From Gaiellales bacterium (lineage in GTDB: Bacteria > Actinomycetota > Thermoleophilia > Gaiellales > F1-60-MAGs149), in the NCBI GenBank assembly GCA_038321545.1, contig JBBQFB010000001.1, positions 5,239 to 69,238 of the forward strand: a stretch of 64,000 bases of DNA. The letters run 5' to 3'. Positions within the stretch are counted from its first letter, which is position 1. Every line of letters begins with the position of its first letter. The position numbers and the translations under genes are program-made. A model generated the notes under the pieces. That model did no database searches. It worked only from the letters and a program-made list of their open reading frames with translations, and was not told the origin of the DNA. Below, in pieces: positions 10,896 through 52,986 of the stretch.

Positions 10896-12458
10896 ATGGC
10901 GACGAAGGTCACATACATCTCCACGTCACTGCCGAGCGACGAGCAGAACGCGGCGTTCGATGCCGCGGTGGCCGACGTCCGCGCGCAGGTCGGCGCGCAC
11001 GAACTGATCATCGGCGGCACGACCCGCGCCGGAGGGGCAGGCTCCTTCGAGGTCAAGAATCCTGCGAACCACGAGGAGTCGCTCGGCACCTTCGCCGAGG
11101 CGTCGGCCGGCGACGTCGCCGACGCCGTGGCCGCGGCCCGGGCGGCCGCGCACGACTGGAGCTCGACGCCGTACGCCGAGCGCGCGCGGATCCTCCAGCA
11201 CGCCGCCGATCTGATCCGCGAGCGCGTGATGTTCCTCGGCGCCGTGGTGGCGCTCGAGGTCGGCAAGAACCGGGTCGAGTCGGTCGGCGAGGTCGAGGAG
11301 GGCGCCGACCTGATCTCCTACTACTGCGACCGCCTCGTCGAGCACCACGAGTTCCGCACCGACCAGGAATCGCAGACCGGCGAGGACCGGAACACGTCGG
11401 TGCTGCGACCGTACGGCGTGTTCGGCGTGATCTCGCCGTTCAACTTCCCGTCGGCGCTCGCGGCCGGTCCCATCGGCGCCGCGCTCGTGGCGGGCAACAC
11501 GGTGGTGTTCAAGCCCGCCGAGACGACGCCGTGGTCGGGCGTCCTGCTGGCCGAGATCCTGCACGAGGCCGGCGTTCCCGGCGCCGCGTTGAACCTCGTC
11601 ACGGGCGGTCCCACGGCCGGCAAGGCGCTGGTCGCTGCGCGCGGCGTCGACGGCATCGCCTTCACCGGCTCCTACGACGTGGGCCGCGAGATCTACCGGA
11701 CGTTCGCGATCGGCGAGCACTACTCGCGGCCGTGCATCACCGAGATGGGCGGCAAGAACCCGGCCATCGTGACGGCCACGGCCGACCTCGAGAAGGCAGC
11801 CAACGGCATCCTCCGCTCGGCCTTCGGGGCCAGCGGCCAGAAGTGCTCGGCCTGCTCGCGCGTGCTGGTCGACGAGCGCGTGCACGACGCGCTGATCGAG
11901 CGGCTGGCGGAGGGCGCGAAGTCGTGGACGGTTGCCGACTCGGTCGCCGCGGACTGCCGGCTCGGCCCGGTGAACAACGCCGAGGCCTACGAGAAGTACC
12001 GGCGCGCGTCGGCCGACGCGCGCCGCGACGGTCGCGTCGTGGCCGGTGCCGAGGTGCTCACCGACGGGGCGTTCGCCCGCGGGTACTTCGTGGCGCCGAC
12101 CATCGTCGCCGACCTGCCGGCCGGGCACCGGCTCACCACCGATGAGCTGTTCGTGCCGTTCGTCGTCGTCGAGCGGGCGGCCGACCTGGACGCTGCGATC
12201 ACGGCGGCGAACGCACAGTCGCTCGGGCTCACGGCCGGCCTGTTCAGCGAGGACGAGGACGAGAAGCAGCAGTTCCTCGACCGCATCGAGGCCGGCGTCG
12301 TGTACGTCAACCGCGCGGCCGGAGCGACCACCGGCGCCTGGCCCGGCTACCAGACCTTCGGCGGCTGGAAGGGTTCCGGCTCCACCGGCAAATCGGCCTT
12401 CGGGCCGCACTACGTCCAGCTGTTCATGCGCGAGCAGTCGCGCACCATTCTCCCCTGA
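10896..12458 (+). CDS. aldehyde dehydrogenase, most like L-glutamate gamma-semialdehyde (1-pyrroline-5-carboxylate) dehydrogenase
   Basis: 520 aa; FTGS, EMGGKNP, catalytic GQKCSACSR; length typical of RocA/PruA-type enzymes. Confidence 0.8.
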   Translation: MATKVTYISTSLPSDEQNAAFDAAVADVRAQVGAHELIIGGTTRAGGAGSFEVKNPANHEESLGTFAEASAGDVADAVAAARAAAHDWSSTPYAERARILQHAADLIRERVMFLGAVVALEVGKNRVESVGEVEEGADLISYYCDRLVEHHEFRTDQESQTGEDRNTSVLRPYGVFGVISPFNFPSALAAGPIGAALVAGNTVVFKPAETTPWSGVLLAEILHEAGVPGAALNLVTGGPTAGKALVAARGVDGIAFTGSYDVGREIYRTFAIGEHYSRPCITEMGGKNPAIVTATADLEKAANGILRSAFGASGQKCSACSRVLVDERVHDALIERLAEGAKSWTVADSVAADCRLGPVNNAEAYEKYRRASADARRDGRVVAGAEVLTDGAFARGYFVAPTIVADLPAGHRLTTDELFVPFVVVERAADLDAAITAANAQSLGLTAGLFSEDEDEKQQFLDRIEAGVVYVNRAAGATTGAWPGYQTFGGWKGSGSTGKSAFGPHYVQLFMREQSRTILP

Positions 12459-12464
12459 GGTGAC

Positions 12465-12734
12465 GTGATGGAAGGCAACTTCGGCTTCGGCTTCGACCCA
12501 GAGATGCTGCAGCGCGCGCTCGGCGACATGGCCGATCAGGCGCGGCAGTCCCAGCAGGTGGCGTTCGCCGACGCGGCGATCAGCCTGGCCGTGCAGATGA
12601 CGGTGGCGGCGGTCGGGCAGATCGCGCCGTCCGGCACGCCGGAGGAGCAGGCGGAGCAGCTGCGCGCCGCGATCACGCGCATCTACCCCGAGTGCGTGGC
12701 CCTGGTGCGTGAGGCCCGGCAGGGCCTGCAGTGA
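12465..12734 (+). CDS. small hypothetical protein
   Basis: 89 aa, GC-rich third positions, 4-nt GTGA overlap with the downstream VOC gene. Confidence 0.55.
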   Translation: MMEGNFGFGFDPEMLQRALGDMADQARQSQQVAFADAAISLAVQMTVAAVGQIAPSGTPEEQAEQLRAAITRIYPECVALVREARQGLQ

Positions 12735-13108
12735 GGTTCGACCACGCCGTGTTGCTCGCCGCCGATGCGGCGCGCACCGCGGAGTGGTACCAGCGGGTGC
12801 TGGGCGCCCGCATCGAGGAGCTCGCCTACGGCAGGATCGCCGTCGTGCTCGGCGACGCGCGGCTGCACGTGCAGTTTCCGACGTCGACGCCGAACCCGCG
12901 TCCCGCCGCGCCCGCCGGCCCGGGCGCGAGCGACTTCTGCCTCGTCTGGGACGGCACCGCCGCCGCGGCCGTGGCGCACCTCGAGTCGCACGGCATCGAG
13001 ATCGTGGCCGGGCCGGTCGACCGGCAGGGCAGCTCCGGCACCGGGTCGTCCGTCTACTGCCACGACCCGGACGGCAACCTCGTCGAGCTGATGTCCTACG
13101 CGGGCTGA
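12731..13108 (+). CDS. VOC (glyoxalase/bleomycin-resistance/dioxygenase) family protein
   Basis: 125 aa; FDHAVLL.. start, ..VYCHDPDGNLVELMSY end, typical VOC pattern. Confidence 0.75.
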   Translation: MRFDHAVLLAADAARTAEWYQRVLGARIEELAYGRIAVVLGDARLHVQFPTSTPNPRPAAPAGPGASDFCLVWDGTAAAAVAHLESHGIEIVAGPVDRQGSSGTGSSVYCHDPDGNLVELMSYAG

Positions 13109-13115
13109 GGCGCGC

Positions 13116-13141
13116 CCCGCCACGGGCGGGTTCGGTTTGTG
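13116..13141 (+). terminator. candidate intrinsic terminator after the VOC gene
   Basis: CCCGCC-acg-GGCGGG stem (13116-13130) followed by ttcggtttgtg; stem short, loop only 3 nt. Confidence 0.35.
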
Positions 13142-13204
13142 ACTTGACCCTCATCCGCCATCGGGACCCGCCGTAAAAGGCTCCGATCACGTACCTTTCG
13201 TCTC

Positions 13205-13975
13205 ATGGCCCGCCGCCCCGTCATCGGTATCACGCTGGAGTTCGACGACAACCTGATCCAGGAGGTCGAGAAGGGCATCCGCACACCTCTCCAGGAGGAG
13301 GGCGCGCTCGTCATCTCGCTGCCGCGCGACACGCCCATCCACGAGCTGGATGCGGTGCTCGCGATGATCGACGGCGTCGTCCTCTCCGGCGGTGCCGACG
13401 TCGACCCGTCGTGGTACGGCCACGAGCCGTACGAGCTGACCGTCGCGGTGCCCCCCATCCACGATGCCTTCGAGGTCACCCTCGCCCGCCGCGCGCTCGA
13501 GGCCGGCATGCCCGTGCTCGGCCTGTGCCGGGGCGCGCAGGTGCTGGCCGTGGCCGACGGCGGCACGCTCACGCAGGACGTTCCCGCGCTCCACGAGGGC
13601 GCGAACCGCCACGCGTGGCCGTGGTACGAGATCGCGATGTCGCCGGCCGGCGAGCACTGGCACGAGATCCGGTACGAGCCCGACTCGCGGGTCGCGACGT
13701 GGATCGGCGACGGCCCGGCGAACGTCAACTCGTTCCACCACCAGTGCGTGCGGACGGTCGGGTCGCGTCTGCGCCCTGTGGCCTGGTCGCTGGACGGCGT
13801 GATCGAGGCCACCGAGCGCTCCGACGGCGGCGGCTTCGCAATCGGCCTGCAGTGGCACAACGAGATGATGTGGCGCCACGACGAGCGGTTCCTGGCGCCG
13901 CACCGCGAGTTCACGCAGGCGGCCTGGGACTACGCCGCCGCGCGCGAGCGCGCAGCCGTTCCCTGCAGCGACTAG
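13205..13975 (+). CDS. class I glutamine amidotransferase-like, gamma-glutamyl-GABA hydrolase (PuuD/peptidase C26) family
   Basis: 256 aa; nucleophile elbow GLCRGAQVL, FHHQ. Confidence 0.8.
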   Translation: MARRPVIGITLEFDDNLIQEVEKGIRTPLQEEGALVISLPRDTPIHELDAVLAMIDGVVLSGGADVDPSWYGHEPYELTVAVPPIHDAFEVTLARRALEAGMPVLGLCRGAQVLAVADGGTLTQDVPALHEGANRHAWPWYEIAMSPAGEHWHEIRYEPDSRVATWIGDGPANVNSFHHQCVRTVGSRLRPVAWSLDGVIEATERSDGGGFAIGLQWHNEMMWRHDERFLAPHREFTQAAWDYAAARERAAVPCSD

Positions 13976-44978: not shown

Positions 44979-45664
44979 CGCGCGTCGCCGTGGTCACGGG
45001 CGGCTCGTCCGGGATGGGCGCGGCGTGCGTGCGGCGCTACCTCGACGAGGGCTTTGCCGTGGCGTCGCTCGACCTGGCGCCGGCGGACGTGGAGGGCGTG
45101 CTGGCGATCGGGCTGGACGTGACCGATGCCGCCGCGCTGGCGGCCGCGGCCGGACGGGTGGCGGACGAGCTGGGCGCGCCGTCTGCGCTCGTGAACGCCG
45201 CAGGCGTGTATCCGCCGACCACGCTCGAGACGACGACCGTCGAGCTGTACCGGCGCGTGTTCGACAGCAACGTCCTCGGCACGGTGCTGACCACGCAGGC
45301 CTTCGCACCGGGCATGGCGGACGGTGGTGCGATCGTCAACTTCTCGTCCGTCAACGCGTTCACGCCCTCGGCCGGGCAGCTGCTGTACGGCGCCGCGAAG
45401 GCGGCCATCGTCCAGCTCACGAAGTCGCTCGCGCTCGAGCTGGGCCCGCGGCTGCGCGTGAACGCGCTCGCGCCCGGGTGGGTCGACACGCCCGGCACGC
45501 GGGCCAACGAGCGGCTCGCGGCAGCGATCCCGAAGATCCCGCTGCGCCGAGCCGCGTCGCCGGACGAGATGGCCGACCTGGTGTTCTTGCTGGCCGGCGA
45601 GGGGCGGGCGCTCTACGTCACGGGAGAGACGGTCGTCGCGAGCGGCGGCCTCGTGTTCCGCTGA
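44975..45664 (+). CDS. SDR family oxidoreductase
   Basis: ATG 44975 (ATGA overlap); TGGSSGMGAA, YGAAKAA. Confidence 0.85.
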   Translation: MTRVAVVTGGSSGMGAACVRRYLDEGFAVASLDLAPADVEGVLAIGLDVTDAAALAAAAGRVADELGAPSALVNAAGVYPPTTLETTTVELYRRVFDSNVLGTVLTTQAFAPGMADGGAIVNFSSVNAFTPSAGQLLYGAAKAAIVQLTKSLALELGPRLRVNALAPGWVDTPGTRANERLAAAIPKIPLRRAASPDEMADLVFLLAGEGRALYVTGETVVASGGLVFR

Positions 45665-46917
45665 TGTCCGGACCGCGGTACTGCATCATCGGTGCCGGCG
45701 CGACCGGGCTGGCCTCGATCGAGGCGCTGCGCGACGCGGGCATCGAGTTCGACTGTTTCGAGGCCGACGACCGCGTCGGCGGTCAGTGGCACACGGGGTA
45801 CGAGGCGCTGCACCTGATCACGCCGCGCGACAGTTCCGGCTTCACGGGCTACCCGATGCCGTCGAGCTATCCGCTCTACCCGAGCCGCGACCAGATGCGC
45901 GACTACCTGCTCGACTTCGCCGCCGTCCGCAAGCTCGTCAGCCACGTGACGTTCGATACCCGCGTCGACCGGATCGAGCCCGACGGCCGCGACTGGCTGG
46001 TCGAGACGAGCGACGGCGAGACCCGGCGCTACGCCGGTGTGATCGTCGCGAACGGCCACCTGCGGGTGCCGCTGCAACCGGAGCTCCCCGGATACACCGG
46101 CCTCCAGCTGCACGCCGCCGGCTACAAGAGCACGGCCGATATCGAGGGTCCGCGGGTGCTCGTCGTCGGGTCGGGCAACTCCGGCTGCGACATCGCCGTG
46201 GACTGCGCGCAGCGGCCCGGCCACGACACGACGATCTCGATCCGCAAGGGCCACCTGTTCCAGCCGAAGACGTTCGCCGGCAAGCCGCGCGGCGAGTTGT
46301 GGATCATGCGCCTCCCGCCGCGGCTGCAGGACTACGCGCTTCGCACGATGATCCGGATCGCGGTCGGCAGGCCCGAGGAGTACGGCCTGCCGTCGCCCGA
46401 GACCTGGCGCCTCACCGACCAGAAGCCGATCGTCAACTCGCAGCTGCTGCACTGGATCCATCACGGCCGCGTTGCGATCGCGCCCGGCATCAAGGGCGCG
46501 GACGGGCTGGACGTCGAGTTCGCCGACGGTGCGACGAAGGCGTTCGACACGATCGTGTGGTGCACGGGCTACAGGGTGGAGCTCCCGTTTCTCGACCGCG
46601 GGTTGCTGCAGTGGCAGGACGGCGTGCCGCTGCGAACGGCTGGCTGCGTGCTGCCGAAGCGCGGGCCGGGGCGGCTGTACTTCGTCGGCCTGGTGGCGCC
46701 GCGCGGGCCGCAGCTGTCGGTCTACTCGCGTCAGGCCGCGCTGGTGGCACGCATGCTGCGCCTGCAGGAGCGGGTCGTGACGCCGCTCGCCGAGACGTTC
46801 ACGAGCCACGGCGCACCGGAGGCGCGGATCGACATCGTGCGATCCGTCTGGCAGCGCCAGATCGATCTCGCCGAGGACGTCGTAGGGCGGATGGAGGGCG
46901 GCGAGCGTGCGACCTGA
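45664..46917 (+). CDS. flavin-containing (class B) monooxygenase-like FAD/NADPH oxidoreductase
   Basis: ATG 45664 (1-nt overlap with SDR stop); IIGAGATGL and VVGSGNSGCDIA dinucleotide motifs. Confidence 0.8.
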   Translation: MSGPRYCIIGAGATGLASIEALRDAGIEFDCFEADDRVGGQWHTGYEALHLITPRDSSGFTGYPMPSSYPLYPSRDQMRDYLLDFAAVRKLVSHVTFDTRVDRIEPDGRDWLVETSDGETRRYAGVIVANGHLRVPLQPELPGYTGLQLHAAGYKSTADIEGPRVLVVGSGNSGCDIAVDCAQRPGHDTTISIRKGHLFQPKTFAGKPRGELWIMRLPPRLQDYALRTMIRIAVGRPEEYGLPSPETWRLTDQKPIVNSQLLHWIHHGRVAIAPGIKGADGLDVEFADGATKAFDTIVWCTGYRVELPFLDRGLLQWQDGVPLRTAGCVLPKRGPGRLYFVGLVAPRGPQLSVYSRQAALVARMLRLQERVVTPLAETFTSHGAPEARIDIVRSVWQRQIDLAEDVVGRMEGGERAT

Positions 46918-47303: not shown

Positions 47304-48413
47304 GTGAACGACCGCTTCGGATCCCGCCTCACCGAGCTGTGCGGCATCGATTCCTTCACCGGCGACATCCCCGGTGTCGACCGCGCCGCCCACCTGCTCG
47401 CGCGGTGGGCCAGCGAGGCGGGGCTCGAGGTCGAGCTCGTGCCGTCGCCCGACGGCCTGCACCTGATCGCGTCCACGCAGGGCGCCGGTCGTGGCCGCGT
47501 CCTGTTCATCGGGCACCACGACACCGTGTTCCCGGCGCCGACTGCGGTCGAGCGTCCGGTCACGGTCGCGGGCGGCCGCCTGTTCGGCCCGGGCGTGGCC
47601 GATATGAAGGGCGGCGTGCTCGTCTCGCTGGACGCGCTCGCACGGCTGGCGGCCGACCCCGCGGGCTCGCACGGGCGGGTCGAGCTGCACTGCGTGCCGG
47701 ACGAGGAGGGCCGCAACGTCGAACCGCACACGCTCGATCGGATGCGCGGCGCCGACGCCGCGCTGTGCTTCGAGTGCGGCAGAGCGTCGGGCGCGATCGT
47801 GACGGTGCGCAAGGCGGGCACCTGGCTCGACATCTACGCGAAGGGGCGCGCGGCGCACGCCGGCACCGAGCCGCACGAGGGCCGTTCGGCGCTGATGGCG
47901 CTAGTGTACGAATCGATCCGGATCTGCAAGGAGATCGACGGCGCCCGGCCGGGGCTGACGGCGAACATCACCTGGTTCCACTCCGGCGACGTCAAGAACA
48001 CGATCCCCGACCGGGCCGAGGCGACGGTCGATGTCCGTGCGCTCACGAGTGCCGATCTGGACTGGGCGTTCGACCGGATCGGCGAGTTCGGCGTGCACGA
48101 CGGTGTCGACGTGCGGCGCTCCGACGACCGTGGCTTCCCGGCCATGGAGCGTGCGAACTGGCTCGCCGACCGCACGCTCGAGATCCTCGCCGAGCTCGGC
48201 CAGCCGGCGTTGGAGGAGATGGCGGGCGGCGTCTCGGACGGCTCGTGGATGAGTAGGATCGGCATCCCGACGGTCGACGGCATGGGCCCGGTGGGCGCCC
48301 TCGACCACACCGAGGACGAGTACATCGAGATCGCGTCGATCGATCCGCGCATCGAGGCCACGGTGCGTCTGGTGCGGGAGCTCGGGCGGATGGGGTCATC
48401 ACCTGGCACTTGA
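47304..48413 (+). CDS. M20 family metallopeptidase (carboxypeptidase G2 / ArgE-DapE-like)
   Basis: 369 aa; GHHDTVF, GVADMKGG, PDEEG; last 8 codons lie in the repeat anchor. Confidence 0.85.
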   Translation: MNDRFGSRLTELCGIDSFTGDIPGVDRAAHLLARWASEAGLEVELVPSPDGLHLIASTQGAGRGRVLFIGHHDTVFPAPTAVERPVTVAGGRLFGPGVADMKGGVLVSLDALARLAADPAGSHGRVELHCVPDEEGRNVEPHTLDRMRGADAALCFECGRASGAIVTVRKAGTWLDIYAKGRAAHAGTEPHEGRSALMALVYESIRICKEIDGARPGLTANITWFHSGDVKNTIPDRAEATVDVRALTSADLDWAFDRIGEFGVHDGVDVRRSDDRGFPAMERANWLADRTLEILAELGQPALEEMAGGVSDGSWMSRIGIPTVDGMGPVGALDHTEDEYIEIASIDPRIEATVRLVRELGRMGSSPGT

Positions 48414-49205
48414 GCGATCCGACCCGGCTGCTCGTCCGGCCGACCGCAGACAAGCCGGCCCGGCGCACCGCTCCGGGCTGCGGCGTAGACCCCACTCATC
48501 GCAAGCCGGCGAACGCCTCACCAGCGCTACTCCCAGCACCCAATACCCCACCCAAAATCCGCGGCACCCAACGCAGACCCGCCCAGCGCAGCCCGAAGCA
48601 GCTCAGCCCGAAGGCTGCGATCCGCCTCGTCCCGGATCCGGATGGGGTCATCACCTGGCACTTGAGACGTCCCCCTGTCGCCTCCGCGCTTGCGGCTGGT
48701 GCCGGCCACCGACGAAAGCTGCACGCCACCGCCGCTGCACCCGCGGATGCCTGGCGTCTGCGATCCGACACGGCCGCTCGTCCGACCCACGACAGACAAT
48801 CCCGGCCCGGCGCAGGCTCCGGGCTGCGGCGCGGACCCCACTCATCGCAAGCCGGCGAACGCCTCACCAGCGCTACTCCCAGTACCGAATACCCCACCCG
48901 AAATCCGCGGCACCAAACGCAGACCCGCCCAGCGCAGCCCGAAGCTGCTCGGCCTCAAAGGCTGCAATCCGCCCGCCGCAGACTCGCCCAGCGCAGCCCG
49001 AAGCAGCTCAGCCCGAAGTCTGCGCTCGGCCTCGTCCCGGATGCGGATGAGGTCATCACCTGGCATTTGAGACGTCCCCCTGTCGCCTCCGCGCATGCGG
49101 CTCTTCACGGCCACCGACGAAAGCCGCACGCCACCACGGCCACCCGCGTACGCCTTGCGTCTGCGATCCGCGACGGCTGCTCGTTCGGCCTGAGGCGGAC
49201 CCAGC
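48392..49205. repeat. mosaic degenerate tandem repeat (three units anchored by GGGGTCATCACCTGGCACTTGAG), apparently non-coding
   Basis: Anchor at 48392, 48644 (identical) and 49049 (2 mismatches); exact 49-mer at 48488-48536 and 48834-48882; shared or missing sub-modules between units. Confidence 0.85.
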
Positions 49206-49253: not shown

Positions 49254-49967
49254 TCAGCCGCCGATCACTCCCGGCACCGGCTTGTCGCCGAACCACTTCC
49301 GCCACGCGTCGCCCAGCGCGCCGCTCGCGATCGCCCGGCCGATGCCGTCGTCCAGCAGCGCCACCGTGCCGGCGTCGCCCAGACGGCACGCGGCACCCCA
49401 GGCGTTCTGCGTCTCCGCGACGTGCGCGATGCGGAACCGGCCGCTCGCGAGCTGCGCGCCGAACGCCGGCTCGTCATCGACCATCGCGTCGACCGCTCCC
49501 GACTCGACGGCTGCGACCATCTCGGCGAACACGTCGTCCGAGGATCCGTCGAAGCCCACCAGCTCGGCCGCGCCGAACGACTCGGCGAGCCGCATGTTGG
49601 TCGACGCGACGATCGCGCCCACACGCCGTCCGGCGAGATCTGCCAGCGAGCCGATATCGGAGTCGGCACGCACCAGCACGGCCTCGTCGATCGCGCCGTA
49701 CGGCCGCGAGTAGGAGAACACCTTGCGGCGCTCGTCGGTGATCGCCGAACCACACCAGATCGCATCGACCTCGCCGTCGGCGAGCGCACCCGCGAACCGG
49801 TCCCAGCGCCGGAACTCCCACACCAGCAGGAGCCCGATGGCGTCGGCCACACACGCGGCGGCGTCCGGCTCGAAGCCGTCGCGCGAGCCGTCCGGCGCCG
49901 TCCAGAACAGCGGTCGCGCGTCCATGTCGGCGCAGCACAGCGTGAGGCGGCCCGGTACGACGGTCAC
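49254..49967 (-). CDS. family-3 solute-binding-protein-fold protein without signal peptide
   Basis: Trimmed to GTG 49967 (GTGA overlap with GS-like stop); SBP_bac_3-like blocks (..DAIWCGSAITDERRKVFSYSRPY.., ..VDAMVDDEP..); no N-terminal hydrophobic segment. Confidence 0.75.
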   Translation of the reverse strand: MTVVPGRLTLCCADMDARPLFWTAPDGSRDGFEPDAAACVADAIGLLLVWEFRRWDRFAGALADGEVDAIWCGSAITDERRKVFSYSRPYGAIDEAVLVRADSDIGSLADLAGRRVGAIVASTNMRLAESFGAAELVGFDGSSDDVFAEMVAAVESGAVDAMVDDEPAFGAQLASGRFRIAHVAETQNAWGAACRLGDAGTVALLDDGIGRAIASGALGDAWRKWFGDKPVPGVIGG

Positions 49968-51334
49968 GGCAGCGCCCGCAGGTACATCTCGCGGTGCCAC
50001 TCGGTGACCGTCGAGCAGAACCGCTCCCACTCGTCGGTCTTGTACTCCACGAACGCGTCGAACAGCCCGGCCGGCAGCGCGCCGCGCACGACGTCATCGG
50101 CCTGCAGCAGGGCGAGCGCGTCGCCGAGTGTCCGCGGCAGCTTCGCGTCGCCCGCAACGGCCGGGTCGGACGAGTCGCCGGCCTGGGGCGGCCCCGGATC
50201 GAGGCCGGCCTCGAGGCCGTGCGCAATCGCCACCAGCACCGCGGCATGCGACAGGTACGGGTTCACGCTGGCGTCCGGCAGCTTGTACTCCAGGCGTCCC
50301 GACGCCGACACGCGGATCGCGCAGGTACGGTTGTCGAAGCCCCAGTTGACGGCACCGGGAGCGAACTGCCCGGCGTCCCAGTAGCGGGCGTAGGAGTTCA
50401 CCGTCGGTGCACAGAGCGCGAGCATGCCGGGTGCATGCGCGAGGATGCCGGCGATCGCGTGACGCGCCGTGTCGGTGACGTGCAGCGTCGGGTCGGCCGG
50501 ATCGGCGAAGACGTTGTGGCCGTCGCGCCACAGTGACAGGTTGTGGTGACACCCGTTCGCCATCGCGCCCACCGCCGGCTTCGGCATGAAGCTCGCGATC
50601 ACGCCGAACTCCCGCGCCACCTGCGCACACACCTGCCGGTACGTGACGAGGTTGTCGCAGGTGCGGTCGCAGCGGTCGTACTGGAAGTTCAGCTCCAGCT
50701 GGCCCGCGTCCTCGTAGTCGCCCTCGATCATGTCGAGCCCGAGGGCCTGCGCGTAGCCGACGACCTTGCGGACGATCGGCCGCATCATCTCGAGCGCGCC
50801 GAAGTGGTACGCGGGCGACACGTTCGGCTGCGACCACGGCTCGATCTCCGGGCCGAGCCAGCTCATCTCGGGCTCCGTGCCCGACCGCAGCTCGTAGCCG
50901 GTCCGCTGCTCGAAGTCGGCGTGCACGCGGGTGAGGTTCGACCGCACGCACGTCGGCAGCGGCGTGCCGGGATCGACCGCCCGGTCACGGCGGTGGTAGA
51001 GGTTGCAGTACATCCGCCCGAACCCCGTGTCCCATGGGAGCACCTGGAACGTGCTCGCGTCGGGCAGCGCCACGAACTCCTCCGCCTCGCCGCCCGAGGC
51101 GATCAGCGTGCCGGCGCGGCTGGTGGCCAGATCCGCGACGGCCGAGCCGTGGAACTGGACGCCGCGCTCCAGGTTGCGCGCCAGGTGCCGCGCAGGGACG
51201 ACCTTCGCCATCACCCGGCCGTTGAGCGTCACGAACTGGTAGTAGACGAACTCGACGCCGGCGTCGCGGATGTGAGCGGCCAGGTCGGGCTCGAGCGTGG
51301 CGTTGGCGGCGGCCTGCTCGTCGAGCGCGGTCAC
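49964..51334 (-). CDS. glutamine synthetase family protein (GS-like gamma-glutamyl ligase, substrate unknown)
   Basis: 456 aa; ..FMPKPAVGAMANGCHHNLSL.., GS beta-grasp N-terminus. Confidence 0.88.
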   Translation of the reverse strand: MTALDEQAAANATLEPDLAAHIRDAGVEFVYYQFVTLNGRVMAKVVPARHLARNLERGVQFHGSAVADLATSRAGTLIASGGEAEEFVALPDASTFQVLPWDTGFGRMYCNLYHRRDRAVDPGTPLPTCVRSNLTRVHADFEQRTGYELRSGTEPEMSWLGPEIEPWSQPNVSPAYHFGALEMMRPIVRKVVGYAQALGLDMIEGDYEDAGQLELNFQYDRCDRTCDNLVTYRQVCAQVAREFGVIASFMPKPAVGAMANGCHHNLSLWRDGHNVFADPADPTLHVTDTARHAIAGILAHAPGMLALCAPTVNSYARYWDAGQFAPGAVNWGFDNRTCAIRVSASGRLEYKLPDASVNPYLSHAAVLVAIAHGLEAGLDPGPPQAGDSSDPAVAGDAKLPRTLGDALALLQADDVVRGALPAGLFDAFVEYKTDEWERFCSTVTEWHREMYLRALP

Positions 51335-52197
51335 GCCACGACCACGAGCGGTGCGAAGTCGCGATCGATGGACGGTGTCCGGTAGCCGTCCTCGCGGTAC
51401 AGGATCGGGAAGAACGCCTCGTCCATCTCGAGCTCGCCGGGCCGCATGTACTTGCTGTAGATCTCGTGACGGTTCGTCTCGTGCCAGCGCGTGTCGGTGG
51501 TCACCATGTGCGAGATGATCGAGCGCCGCTCACGGTCGAGCCGCTCGTTCGGCGGCGAGCCGTGCCAGCACCATCCGTCGTGGAACGCGCACCCGCCGGC
51601 CGGCACCTCGATCGGCACCCACTCCACGGCGTCGGCGTACTCCGCGTCGACGACGCCGCGCAGGTACCCCGTCCAGTCGTCGGGCGCGTGGAACTGGCCG
51701 CCCGGCGCCGATCGCGGCCAGTGGTTCGAGCCGCGGGCGTAGTAGATCGTGCCGGTGTCGGCGTGCGTGTCGTCCAGCGCGATCCAGCACGTCGTCATGT
51801 TCTGCGGCACGACGAACGTCTCGTAGGCGGCGTCCTGGTGCGCGAGCAGCGCCTTCGATCCGGGCGGCTTCCAGATCATGTTGTCCTGCAGCAGCCGCAT
51901 CCCGGGAGCCTGTGCGAGCTGCGCGCCCCAACGGCCGTTGCGCTCCGAGAGCGTCGTCGCGGCGAGCACCTGGTCGGCCTTCCACACGTTGCACAGCTGC
52001 CGCGCGACGTTGGCCGGCGTTACGCCCGGCGTGTAGTTGACCTCGTCAGGGCGCAGGCCGGTCGGCCACTGGTGGTCGAAGCAGGCGTGGAACCGCTCGC
52101 GCACGCGCTCGAGCTCGTCCCGTCCCATGTAGTGCTCCACGACGAGAAATCCGTCGCGCTGGTACTGCTCGATCTGGTCCTGCGTGGGCCCGTTCAC
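51331..52197 (-). CDS. phytanoyl-CoA dioxygenase (PhyH) family Fe(II)/2-oxoglutarate dioxygenase
   Basis: GTG 52197 with AAGGAG 7 nt upstream; HQDAAY (HxD) and distal WHGSPPN. Confidence 0.8.
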   Translation of the reverse strand: MNGPTQDQIEQYQRDGFLVVEHYMGRDELERVRERFHACFDHQWPTGLRPDEVNYTPGVTPANVARQLCNVWKADQVLAATTLSERNGRWGAQLAQAPGMRLLQDNMIWKPPGSKALLAHQDAAYETFVVPQNMTTCWIALDDTHADTGTIYYARGSNHWPRSAPGGQFHAPDDWTGYLRGVVDAEYADAVEWVPIEVPAGGCAFHDGWCWHGSPPNERLDRERRSIISHMVTTDTRWHETNRHEIYSKYMRPGELEMDEAFFPILYREDGYRTPSIDRDFAPLVVVA

Positions 52198-52263
52198 CTC
52201 TACGCTCCTTGCGATCGCCGCTCGGCGACAGTTATACATCTAGTCAATAGAAGTTTCAAGCGG
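52198..52263. promoter_or_regulatory. AT-richer divergent control region between phyH operon and GntR gene, with GT-N3-AC candidate operator (GTTATAC, 52231-52237)
   Basis: acagttatacatctagtcaatagaagtttcaag is the most AT-rich stretch I noticed in the window; contains TTGACT (minus strand). Confidence 0.3.
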
Positions 52264-52986
52264 ATGGATGTCACCGCCCGACAGACCGTGTTCGCACCGC
52301 TCCAGGTGGAGGGTGCGGTGGAGGCGATCGTACGCCGGATCGGCGAGGCGATCGGCTCCGGCGTGCTCGAGCCGGGCGAGCGGCTGCCGAGCGAGGGCGA
52401 GCTCGCCGCGCGTCTGGCCGTGGCGCCGATGACCCTCCGGCAGGGGCTCGCGATCCTCCGGGACGCCGGTTTCGTCGAGACGCGTCGGGGCCGAGGGGGC
52501 GGCTCGTTCGTCGCTGCCGACGCGCGGCACGCCCTGCAGCCATCCGCGACCGTCCCCGGCGAGGCCGAGCTGCGCGAGCTGACGGACTGGCGCCGAGCCA
52601 TCTCCGGCGAGGCCGCGGCGCTCGCCGCGCGACGGGCATCGGCCGCCGAGCGGAGCGGCCTGCACGGCGCGGCCGAGGCCGTCGATGCTGCGGCCGGGTC
52701 GTTCGCCGGGTTCCGGCGGGCCGACGCGCGGTTCCACATCGCGATCGCCGAGGTGAGCGGCAACGCGCGCCTGGTGCGCGCCGAGACGGCGATCCAGGCC
52801 GAGGTCGGCGAGTTCCTCCGGCTCGTTCCGGGGCCGGAACTGGCGCGCCGCGCCTCGGGGGCCGGACACGGGCCCGTGCTCGACGCCGTCGACGCGGGCG
52901 ACGCGGAACGGGCGCGCGCCACCATGGAGCGGCACGTCGAGGCGACCTATGACTGGATCGCCGGCCTGCGCCTCGGACTCAGGTAG
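52264..52986 (+). CDS. GntR/FadR-family transcriptional regulator (HTH + FCD domain)
   Basis: ATG 52264; LPSEGELAARLAVAPMTLRQGLAILRDAGFVETRRGRGGGSFV. Confidence 0.88.
   Translation: MDVTARQTVFAPLQVEGAVEAIVRRIGEAIGSGVLEPGERLPSEGELAARLAVAPMTLRQGLAILRDAGFVETRRGRGGGSFVAADARHALQPSATVPGEAELRELTDWRRAISGEAAALAARRASAAERSGLHGAAEAVDAAAGSFAGFRRADARFHIAIAEVSGNARLVRAETAIQAEVGEFLRLVPGPELARRASGAGHGPVLDAVDAGDAERARATMERHVEATYDWIAGLRLGLR

Follow-up and report, generated by a model that had tools for sequence, protein, structure and literature searches.

The coupling of gamma-glutamylation to amine oxygenation is already known as a kind of pathway. In the Ipu pathway of Pseudomonas sp. KIE171 and the Pip pathway of Pseudomonas sp. 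KU43P, a ligase reportedly glutamylates the amine, a cytochrome P450 (P450) hydroxylates the alkyl part, and a hydrolase frees the glutamate. The CYP151 enzymes PipA and MorA serve the use of pyrrolidine, piperidine and morpholine, i.e., of secondary amines. The work on cyclic amines and the pip/mor CYP151 enzymes has been summarized (PMC9477822), and gamma-glutamylation is described as the step that makes the amine an oxygenase substrate in 1-naphthylamine degradation (PMC11335346). An Fe/2-oxoglutarate (2OG) hydroxylase, BesE, is described as acting on gamma-glutamyl-propargylglycine (bioRxiv 10.1101/2025.10.10.681649).

Here we analyze a locus that resembles these systems, located in a 64,000-nucleotide stretch (the window) of a metagenome-assembled genome (MAG) of a Gaiellales bacterium (GenBank assembly GCA_038321545.1, contig JBBQFB010000001.1, positions 5,239 to 69,238). 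The window is part of contig C1 of this MAG, which has 375 contigs and is 86% complete, and its GC content is 71.7%. The locus is a three-gene operon encoding a PhyH-family Fe(II)/2OG oxygenase, a glutamine synthetase (GS)-like ligase and a solute-binding protein (SBP) without a signal peptide, and it is transcribed divergently from a GntR regulator. Our preferred reading, which we hold tentatively, is that this operon is a GntR-repressed catabolic and nitrogen-scavenging module in which a small secondary amine, probably dimethylamine (DMA), would be gamma-glutamylated and then oxidatively N-dealkylated. What is new, compared to the systems above, is a PhyH enzyme in the oxygenase role, a conserved cytoplasmic SBP partner, a link of the oxygenase family to Tdm and TMADH, and the seamless, modular loss of the ligase gene.

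Structure of the operon and comparison with described pathways

Gene boundaries were set from codon-position gene calling together with the raw sequence, and domains were assigned by Pfam and NCBIfam profile scoring. A scan for PhyH relatives gave 141 loci, and among the 80 that were kept, all loci bearing a taxon name are from uncultured Actinomycetota (Gaiellales, Solirubrobacteraceae, Thermoleophilia, Acidimicrobiales). The features of the locus are as follows (aa, amino acids).

52264-52986, plus strand: GntR regulator (FadR-type), divergent from the operon; Pfam GntR 52.7 bits and FCD 77.7 bits
52198-52263, no strand: divergent control region, 66 bp, recognized by its GC content and motif conservation
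51331-52197, minus strand: PhyH-family Fe(II)/2OG oxygenase, operon gene 1; 288 aa, Pfam PhyH 83 bits
49964-51334, minus strand: GS-like glutamate-amine ligase; 456 aa, Gln-synt_C 262 bits and weak Gln-synt_N
49254-49967, minus strand: signal-less SBP_bac_3 protein; 237 aa, SBP_bac_3 71 bits
51328-51335: 8-nt direct repeat, copy 1, CGGTCACG (plus strand), in the PhyH/ligase overlap
49961-49968: 8-nt direct repeat, copy 2, CGGTCACG, in the ligase/SBP overlap

The initial annotation of this DNA had described three minus-strand genes fused by GTGA overlaps, had named the PhyH, Gln-synt_C and SBP_bac_3 domains, and had placed a FadR-type GntR regulator across an AT-richer spacer of 66 bp. Our analysis bears out each of these points. 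Stop/start overlaps of the sequence GTGA are present exactly where they were claimed, at 51331-51334 (PhyH/ligase) and 49964-49967 (ligase/SBP); every named domain was recovered by Pfam and NCBIfam scoring, the regulator having an N-terminal GntR winged helix and a C-terminal FCD domain; and the spacer is exactly 66 bp, with 51.5% GC against the 71.7% of the window. The PhyH gene starts at a GTG (52197), 7 nt past an AAGGAG Shine-Dalgarno sequence (52205-52210); the ATG at 52239 that an open reading frame finder takes as its start was rejected, as it falls within the conserved operator.

The spacer contains a 30-bp core of only 27% GC. Two elements, a TTGAA(A/C) box and the inverted repeat TCTA-N5-TAGA, are common to the same spacer of 18 related loci, and in the window these lie at 52254-52259 (TTGAAA) and 52239-52251, with the inverted repeat sitting between the TTGAAA box and a TATAAC sequence. 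This layout is of the repressor type, with operator and promoter roles that we infer, since a strict scan for sigma-70 promoter and terminator consensus sequences gave no match. The same GntR regulator partners PhyH in at least 20 loci, stand-alone PhyH genes among them.

When compared by description with the Ipu and Pip pathways, the window operon follows the same logic, with PhyH here where a P450 is used there, and with no hydrolase; an SBP-fold partner is not described for those pathways. Thus, of the parts that define an Ipu/Pip-type cluster (ligase, P450 system and C26 hydrolase), the ligase is present, and the P450 and ferredoxin are absent, with PhyH in their stead. The aniline and 1-naphthylamine systems differ further, in that they act on aromatic amines and use a Rieske oxygenase and a C26-type hydrolase encoded in the cluster, none of which is seen at the window operon. 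In the Puu pathway (PuuA/PuuB/PuuC/PuuD) a GS-like ligase traps a primary amine, and its aldehyde dehydrogenase and C26 steps are also found in the P450-type sister clusters described below; the window operon is without the oxidase, the aldehyde dehydrogenase and PuuD. BesE, again compared by description, is also an Fe/2OG oxygenase that takes a gamma-glutamylated substrate; it differs in its biosynthetic setting and in that its ligase is from another family.

The likeness to BesE raises the alternative that the operon is a biosynthetic tailoring unit for a hydroxylated gamma-glutamyl compound, with a protecting-group logic like that of beta-ethynylserine (BesE) or butirosin. The action of an Fe/2OG hydroxylase on a gamma-glutamyl dipeptide has a precedent in what the BesE preprint describes, and an M20 gene that could serve for deprotection is coupled to the operon in some relatives. 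We nevertheless consider this explanation very improbable: there are no scaffold-forming biosynthetic genes nearby in any locus, the neighbors are housekeeping or catabolic, the regulator is of a catabolic type, and the homologous clusters contain permeases, aldehyde dehydrogenases and hydrolases.

The GS-like gene is predicted to encode an amine-type ligase

Scoring against curated NCBIfam equivalogs placed the ligase well below the cut-offs for GlnA type I (TIGR00653; 245 bits, cut-off 429), for type III glutamate--ammonia ligase/GmaS (TIGR03105; 307 bits, cut-off 470) and for PuuA (NF045547; 242 bits, cut-off 650). Its top solved relatives are the glutamate-methylamine ligases 9qur and 7cql, with true GS ranking lower. 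Adjacency to mgsABC is a further mark of GmaS, and there are no mgs genes in the operon. Alignment to B. subtilis GS (4lnf; Salmonella numbering) demonstrated that the equivalents of the ammonium-site and flap residues D50'/S53'/E327/R359 are H62/A65/F324/K351 in the window ligase, so that the FDGSS motif of B. subtilis GS reads FHGSA and GYEAP reads GQFAP. These substitutions are shared by all 11 oxygenase-linked ligases compared with that of the window, and the metal, ATP and glutamate residues are kept (E131, E133, E212, H269, R321, R339, R344 and E357). The residues at pocket positions D50/S53/E327/R359 differ between the classes as follows.

True GS: D/S/E/R
GmaS-type: A or V / A or S / W / R
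Oxygenase-linked: H/A/F/K

Phylogenetic analysis gave a clade (100/100 support) made up of two sister groups, one of Mgs-linked, GmaS-type ligases and the other of oxygenase-linked ligases (99/99), within which PhyH-linked and P450-linked members are intermixed. A paralogue from the window genome itself, the Mgs-linked copy on contig C34, falls in the GmaS-type group, and its pocket reads V/A/W/R. Outside both groups are the proteobacterial GMAS, B. subtilis GS and 15 more GS-like paralogues of the same genome. Since the ammonium-site residues are replaced and the scores fall below all curated equivalog cut-offs, the window ligase is best regarded as an amine-type member of the GS family and not as a true glutamine synthetase, as had been proposed from first inspection of the DNA. 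Grouping with bona fide GS carrying an intact ammonium site was checked, and is not the case on either the tree or the pocket residues.

The genome as a whole (G000) encodes approximately 20 GS-like paralogues, four MgsABC-like sets and several GS-like/C26 pairs (e.g., on contigs C34, C22, C26, C83, C293, C40 and C241), an unusually large repertoire of gamma-glutamyl amine metabolism, and it holds a GmaS-MgsABC island away from the operon. These findings bear on a short cut for methylamine or primary alkylamines, in which the ligase would make gamma-glutamylmethylamide and PhyH would demethylate this to glutamine and formaldehyde, bypassing N-methylglutamate. The top PDB and NCBIfam matches of the ligase, which are methylamine ligases, and the glutamine-binder type of the SBP are in line with it. 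Such a route would, however, duplicate the complete GmaS/Mgs/SoxB-like route of the same genomes and islands, the pocket signature is unlike that of GmaS, and the link to DMA-producing enzymes described below would be left unexplained; we therefore consider it improbable.

Homologues of the ligase, SBP and regulator are found together in P450-type clusters

Homologues of the ligase with 54-69% identity occur in clusters of Streptomyces, Actinomadura and metagenomes, and these sister clusters encode a GntR(FCD) regulator, a cache-domain protein, an amino-acid permease, a P450, a ferredoxin (with or without a reductase), the ligase, a signal-less SBP_bac_3 protein, a C26 hydrolase and an aldehyde dehydrogenase. 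The P450s of these clusters, including that of Gordonia sp. KTR9, share 54-66% identity with each other, and the GntR regulators are 35-59% identical to that of the window, for example 59% in the P450 cluster L001, 42% in Streptomyces L003 and 35% in Gordonia KTR9. On plasmid pGKT2 of KTR9, the N-terminal part of a ligase-oxidoreductase fusion falls in the same ligase clade, and its neighbors encode a P450, an FCD regulator and a cache protein; we take the KTR9 P450 beside glnA-xplB to be CYP151C. This fusion, on a plasmid for RDX degradation, is a frame of 814 aa (L089, 8992-11436) that joins the ligase to an FAD oxidoreductase upstream of a flavodoxin-P450, and PLSDB lists no feature over its ligase part.

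The CYP151-type clusters (Mycobacterium pip/mor and the KTR9 xplAB neighborhood) thus share with the window operon the ligase clade, the H/A/F/K pocket and a FadR-type GntR regulator, and many of them also contain a homologous signal-less SBP. They differ in having a P450, ferredoxin, reductase, C26 hydrolase, aldehyde dehydrogenase, permease and cache protein, all of which the window operon is without. Since the nearest homologues of the ligase, SBP and GntR reside together in P450/ferredoxin/C26/aldehyde dehydrogenase clusters, PhyH is a like-for-like replacement of the P450: the operon keeps the regulator/ligase/SBP chassis and has one Fe/2OG oxygenase in place of a three-component P450 system. 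The parallel with pathways that pair a GS-like protein and an oxygenase, which was drawn in the initial annotation, is therefore real.

The PhyH family is associated with methylated-amine genes

The PhyH family of the window operon is unusually well conserved, with a mean column identity of 64%, and H120, D122, H212 and R224 are invariant in 63 orthologues. The HxD...H triad and the 2OG-binding Arg are thus in place, the Pfam score of 83 bits compares with a cut-off of 22, and the AlphaFold2 model (pLDDT, the predicted local distance difference test, 95) matches PhyH-type structures. Among solved structures, the closest in fold are SnoN/SnoK, MysH, PHYHD1, proline hydroxylases, EctD and GriE, with no more than 21% identity and a template modelling (TM) score of ~0.7; reading a substrate from the structure was rejected, as there is no close solved relative.

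Outside the clade of the window operon, the genes beside PhyH orthologues were more informative as to substrate class. Both Tdm, the trimethylamine N-oxide (TMAO) demethylase, and TMADH, trimethylamine dehydrogenase, yield DMA. In 21 Gaiellaceae loci, an acyl-CoA dehydrogenase (ACAD)-like gene is followed by one for a 772-aa protein and then by PhyH, and the 772-aa protein is Tdm (NF053776, 1192 bits, cut-off 1100). In Acidimicrobiaceae and in genome G048, PhyH occurs with an old yellow enzyme (OYE)/Fe-S flavoprotein of TMADH architecture, both electron transfer flavoprotein (ETF) subunits, alpha and beta, and an Fe-S oxidoreductase, with PhyH lying within the TMADH-like-ETF operon in L097. 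A GmaS-type ligase, MgsABC and a SoxB-like oxidase are close to these TMADH-type PhyH loci. PhyH is also found near an APC permease, which scores highest with the model for the TMAO permease of Methylocella (181 bits, under the cut-off). In G048 (L097) a GcvT-like gene faces PhyH, which recalls DmmD, encoded beside the DMA monooxygenase (PMC5520151).

Across 151 genomes of the class, Tdm is present in 9 and PhyH in 11, with both present in 8 (hypergeometric p = 2.6e-10). Most of these genomes belong to one family, within which p = 2.5e-4. Relatedness inflates the two p values. The genes called in the Tdm islands L098 and L099 account for methylamine and the steps after it, and among them we saw none that would compete with PhyH for the DMA step, Dmm homologues elsewhere in the genomes not having been searched for. 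PhyH orthologues hold the Tdm-adjacent place that dmmDABC has in proteobacteria, and the absence of dmmDABC from many organisms with tmm, tdm and gmaS is a published puzzle (PMC5520151). In the literature searched, we found no paper combining phytanoyl-CoA dioxygenase with Tdm- or TMADH-type genes, and searches on a PhyH/2OG enzyme with dimethylamine, on glutamylpiperidide and on the xpl/cyp151C cluster returned nothing usable. Compared with the described methylated-amine pathway (Tmm/Tdm/DmmDABC and the N-methylglutamate route of GmaS, MgsABC and Mgd), the window system is similar in that its ligase clade is sister to Mgs-linked GmaS and that its genome has GmaS-MgsABC, and differs in that the proposed route uses no Dmm-type enzyme, and in having an Fe/2OG oxygenase, a non-GmaS pocket and a genome without Tdm. 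Taken together, these gene associations point to methylated or secondary amines as the probable substrate class.

Homologues of this PhyH are abundant in soil metagenomes (1106 protein clusters at E <= 1e-40 among the candidates scored), and one with 64% identity, P0228, is from Gaiella occulta. Genome G010, which appears to be that of Gaiella occulta, a cultured organism, contains a GntR|PhyH pair next to its nuo operon (contig C5), a full GmaS-MgsABC-SoxB-like-ACAD-Tdm island, and an SBP of the cytoplasmic type as an orphan gene (loci L094, L098 and L100); the gene neighborhood of the orphan SBP (L100) is uninformative. Genes for an ACAD-fold protein and a flavin reductase recur in the methylated-amine islands (L098, 11018-12430 and 6192-7169; L081, 3128-4540; L093, 3652-5019 and 7471-8079), the ACAD-fold protein being encoded directly upstream of Tdm and the flavin reductase being fused to a cyclic nucleotide (cNMP)-binding domain; these could form a two-component amine N-oxygenase in place of Tmm. 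A flavin-containing monooxygenase (FMO) gene in the window (45664-46917) was considered as Tmm and rejected (88 bits, cut-off 675). A PhyH copy in genome G142 (C89:668-1504), a genome without a Tdm or GmaS-type match, contains an in-frame TAG and may be decaying.

A cytoplasmic SBP without transporter genes

In the SBP, the mature fold begins with the first beta-strand at residue 7, too early to leave space for a signal peptide, and the N-terminus is not hydrophobic from either candidate start. Adjacent genes for a permease or an ATPase are absent, both in the window and in every related PhyH-SBP operon. The model (pLDDT 95) is closed and matches AncQR, SocA and GlnBP at TM scores of 0.8-0.87, the best sequence matches are the glutamine-binding domains of GlnPQ, and R80 (alpha-carboxylate), T77 and D165 (alpha-amino) are conserved. 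The fold and amino-acid-binding residues of a family-3 SBP are therefore present, and the export signal and transporter genes are not. Two cysteines, C12 and C72, are conserved in the cytoplasmic clade only. Both versions of the system, that with PhyH and that with a P450, have the SBP, which is kept with PhyH after loss of the ligase and is mostly absent from genomes in which PhyH occurs with Tdm. We know of no described function for a signal-less, glutamine-binder-type SBP conserved in this manner.

In Solirubrobacteraceae (L012, L035 and L041), PhyH follows a complete polar-amino-acid ABC transporter (lipoprotein SBP_bac_3, permease and ATPase), which hints at an imported, amino-acid-like substrate in that lineage. 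The transporter-type homologues in these loci have ~50 extra residues, including a lipobox. The idea that the cytoplasmic SBP is a copy of this transporter SBP was rejected, as the two are only 26% identical, and this low identity gives no support for a shared ligand.

Conservation of the operon and repeated loss of the ligase gene

The arrangement GntR|PhyH-GS-SBP is found in the same order and with the same overlaps in the independent contigs L006, L007/L008, L010, L011 and L015, and is therefore beyond chance; the triads of L007/L008 and L015 are followed by a coupled M20 gene. The closest relatives, L049 and L009, are ~87% identical at the DNA level and syntenic with the window from 59203 to 51328. 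In both, the ligase gene is exactly missing, with window base 51328 joined to 49968 (blastn), and a single copy of the 8-nt repeat is present at the junction (7860-7872 in L049). The loss, or insertion, of this entire gene has thus left translational coupling intact.

In the PhyH tree, all GntR|PhyH-(GS)-SBP operons form one clade of 26 loci (97/89 support), in which the ligase-bearing operons make up three sub-clades, each sister to ligase-less PhyH-SBP operons. The branching order of the ligase tree mirrors that of the PhyH tree, which argues for vertical co-inheritance followed by losses, and we read these trees as an ancestral triad that probably underwent at least three or four clean losses of the ligase. 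The genomes of ligase-bearing and ligase-less relatives contain 6-19 GS-like paralogues each, and in the ligase-less genomes the best remaining match to the ligase is of the Mgs-linked type, at 46-48% identity. In L015 (8245-9231; genome G007, C2:325147-326509) the ligase gene is in two frames, covering residues 3-142 and 140-456, and is either a frameshifted pseudogene on its way to loss or an assembly error. The expectation that the triad and its regulator would be conserved elsewhere holds to the extent that they recur in independent loci; the triad is not itself the conserved unit, as the ligase was lost repeatedly, and the stable core appears to be GntR|PhyH(-SBP).

Another reading is that there is no shared pathway, in which case PhyH would act as hydroxylase of some unrelated, amino-acid-like compound and the GS-like gene would have been inserted as a passenger between PhyH and SBP. 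The flanking of the ligase by an 8-nt direct repeat, its absence from the closest relatives and the occurrence of PhyH in many contexts all agree with this. We regard it as quite unlikely, given that the ligase and PhyH trees agree in branching order for the ligase-bearing lineages, that ligase and SBP are also neighbors in the P450 clusters, and that translational coupling is kept on both flanks of the ligase.

Proposed pathway and order of steps

Gene structure, domains, catalytic residues, clades, neighborhoods and co-occurrence are the grounds on which we propose a substrate, an order of steps, and roles for the SBP and GntR. In our preferred reading, the GS-like ligase, with ATP and glutamate, would form a gamma-glutamyl-dialkylamide, which from DMA would be N5,N5-dimethylglutamine; PhyH, with Fe(II), 2-oxoglutarate and O2, would then hydroxylate the N-alkyl carbon, and the resulting carbinolamide would shed an aldehyde, from DMA formaldehyde. 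The leftover gamma-glutamyl-monoalkylamide (gamma-glutamylmethylamide) would enter the GmaS/MgsABC N-methylglutamate route encoded elsewhere in the genome. The cytoplasmic SBP may bind the gamma-glutamyl amide, whether to hold or present it or to help in carbinolamide processing, and GntR would bind TCTA-N5-TAGA until released by a carboxylate-bearing intermediate.

We rank glutamylation before oxygenation slightly ahead of the reverse order for four reasons: the ligase pocket matches the P450-linked, secondary-amine clade and not GmaS; an amino-acid-like intermediate is what the SBP and the FCD regulator suggest; the nearest PhyH folds act on free amino acids; and other amine pathways provide precedents. 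Carboxylates are the usual ligands of FCD-type regulators, and the SBP residues, the FCD regulator and the PhyH folds would all fit an amino-acid-like, gamma-glutamyl substrate for the oxygenase.

Several observations weigh against this reading. The operon itself contains no transporter and no formaldehyde-handling gene, no Tdm was found in the window genome (an 86% complete MAG), and the PhyH proteins of the window clade are only 47-60% identical to those linked to Tdm or TMADH. The PhyH orthologues of Tdm genomes are accompanied only by the Mgs-linked, GmaS-type ligase, and usually by no cytoplasmic SBP; in G048 there is no GmaS-type match at E <= 1e-90. The repeated clean loss of the ligase, with PhyH-SBP kept, is odd for the first enzyme of a pathway, unless a paralogue substitutes. 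In addition, MorA, a related P450, is said to oxidize free morpholine in the passage of PMC9477822 that refers to it (its reference 59).

In the alternative order, the oxygenase would act first, with PhyH dealkylating the free secondary amine (DMA to methylamine and formaldehyde), the ligase trapping the primary amine in the manner of PuuA, and the SBP binding the product. PhyH standing alone after a Tdm or TMADH-like gene, without this ligase or SBP, the absence of a GmaS-type match from G048, and the position of the GcvT-like gene next to PhyH in L097, as DmmD is by the DMA monooxygenase (PMC5520151), are all consistent with such an order, as is what PMC9477822 says of MorA. The clean ligase losses would be explicable if the GmaS of the genome takes over, and the aldehyde dehydrogenase and C26 hydrolase of the P450 clusters would be Puu-type steps that follow the ligase. 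We consider this order nearly as probable as the preferred one. Against it, the H/A/F/K pocket is unlike that of GmaS, so that the ligase is no mere spare methylamine ligase; DMA is without an anchoring group, and the substrates of the nearest PhyH folds carry a carboxylate; the normal signal for an FCD regulator is a carboxylate; and there would be no role for an amino-acid-binding SBP that stays with PhyH in the absence of the ligase.

Of the scheme put forward in the initial annotation, glutamylation followed by hydroxylation, the pairing of ligase and oxygenase in amine metabolism is thus supported, and the order is not established, since PhyH orthologues occur without this ligase or SBP in Tdm genomes; the genomic evidence on whether the ligase precedes the oxygenase is divided. 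A broader proposal, which we consider somewhat unlikely in full, is that the PhyH family is the DMA-level demethylase of Thermoleophilia and Acidimicrobiia, in the role of DmmDABC, and that in the window lineage it would act on gamma-glutamyl-dimethylamide supplied by a dedicated secondary-amine ligase, with a former transporter SBP, now cytoplasmic, as third partner. Peptide amidation uses a hydroxylase/lyase pair, and by analogy the SBP could be a substrate holder or a carbinolamide lyase.

Hydrolases and other genes in the window

Two possible deglutamylating enzymes encoded in the window, an M20 peptidase and a PuuD-like hydrolase, had been noted as not physically coupled to the operon, and this was confirmed in the window genome. 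There are 840 bp between the SBP stop codon and the convergent M20 gene, filled by a local repeat (48392-49205). Synteny with L049 and L009 ends exactly at the SBP stop, and the SBP/M20 junction is therefore a point of rearrangement. The M20 peptidase was rejected as a deglutamylase of the operon, being convergent, not syntenic, and only 35% identical to the coupled M20 of L007/L015/L018. The C26 hydrolase (13205-13975), the only C26 gene of the window, is PuuD-like (78 bits, PuuD cut-off 266) and was rejected as a partner, as its gene is 36 kb from the operon, next to those for an aldehyde dehydrogenase and a glyoxalase, and no link to the operon was found. It belongs to a plus-strand group (10896-13975) that encodes an aldehyde dehydrogenase, a small protein, a glyoxalase-fold protein and the C26 hydrolase.

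Significance

A sizeable amount of organic nitrogen is present as methylated amines, which are also precursors of climate-active aerosols. By its gene position and its co-occurrence with Tdm and TMADH-like genes, the PhyH family is, for Actinomycetota, a concrete candidate for the DMA step that can be tested. In addition, the locus shows that amine catabolism evolves in a modular way, with one ligase/SBP/GntR chassis serving with either a P450 or a PhyH oxygenase, and it provides a case in which a ligase gene is removed seamlessly between two 8-nt repeats, with coupling unbroken. Gaiella occulta offers a cultured organism for a direct test. If the proposal is true, PhyH as a DMA demethylase would be new enzymology in the methylated-amine cycle, and would bring with it a new role for a cytoplasmic SBP fold.

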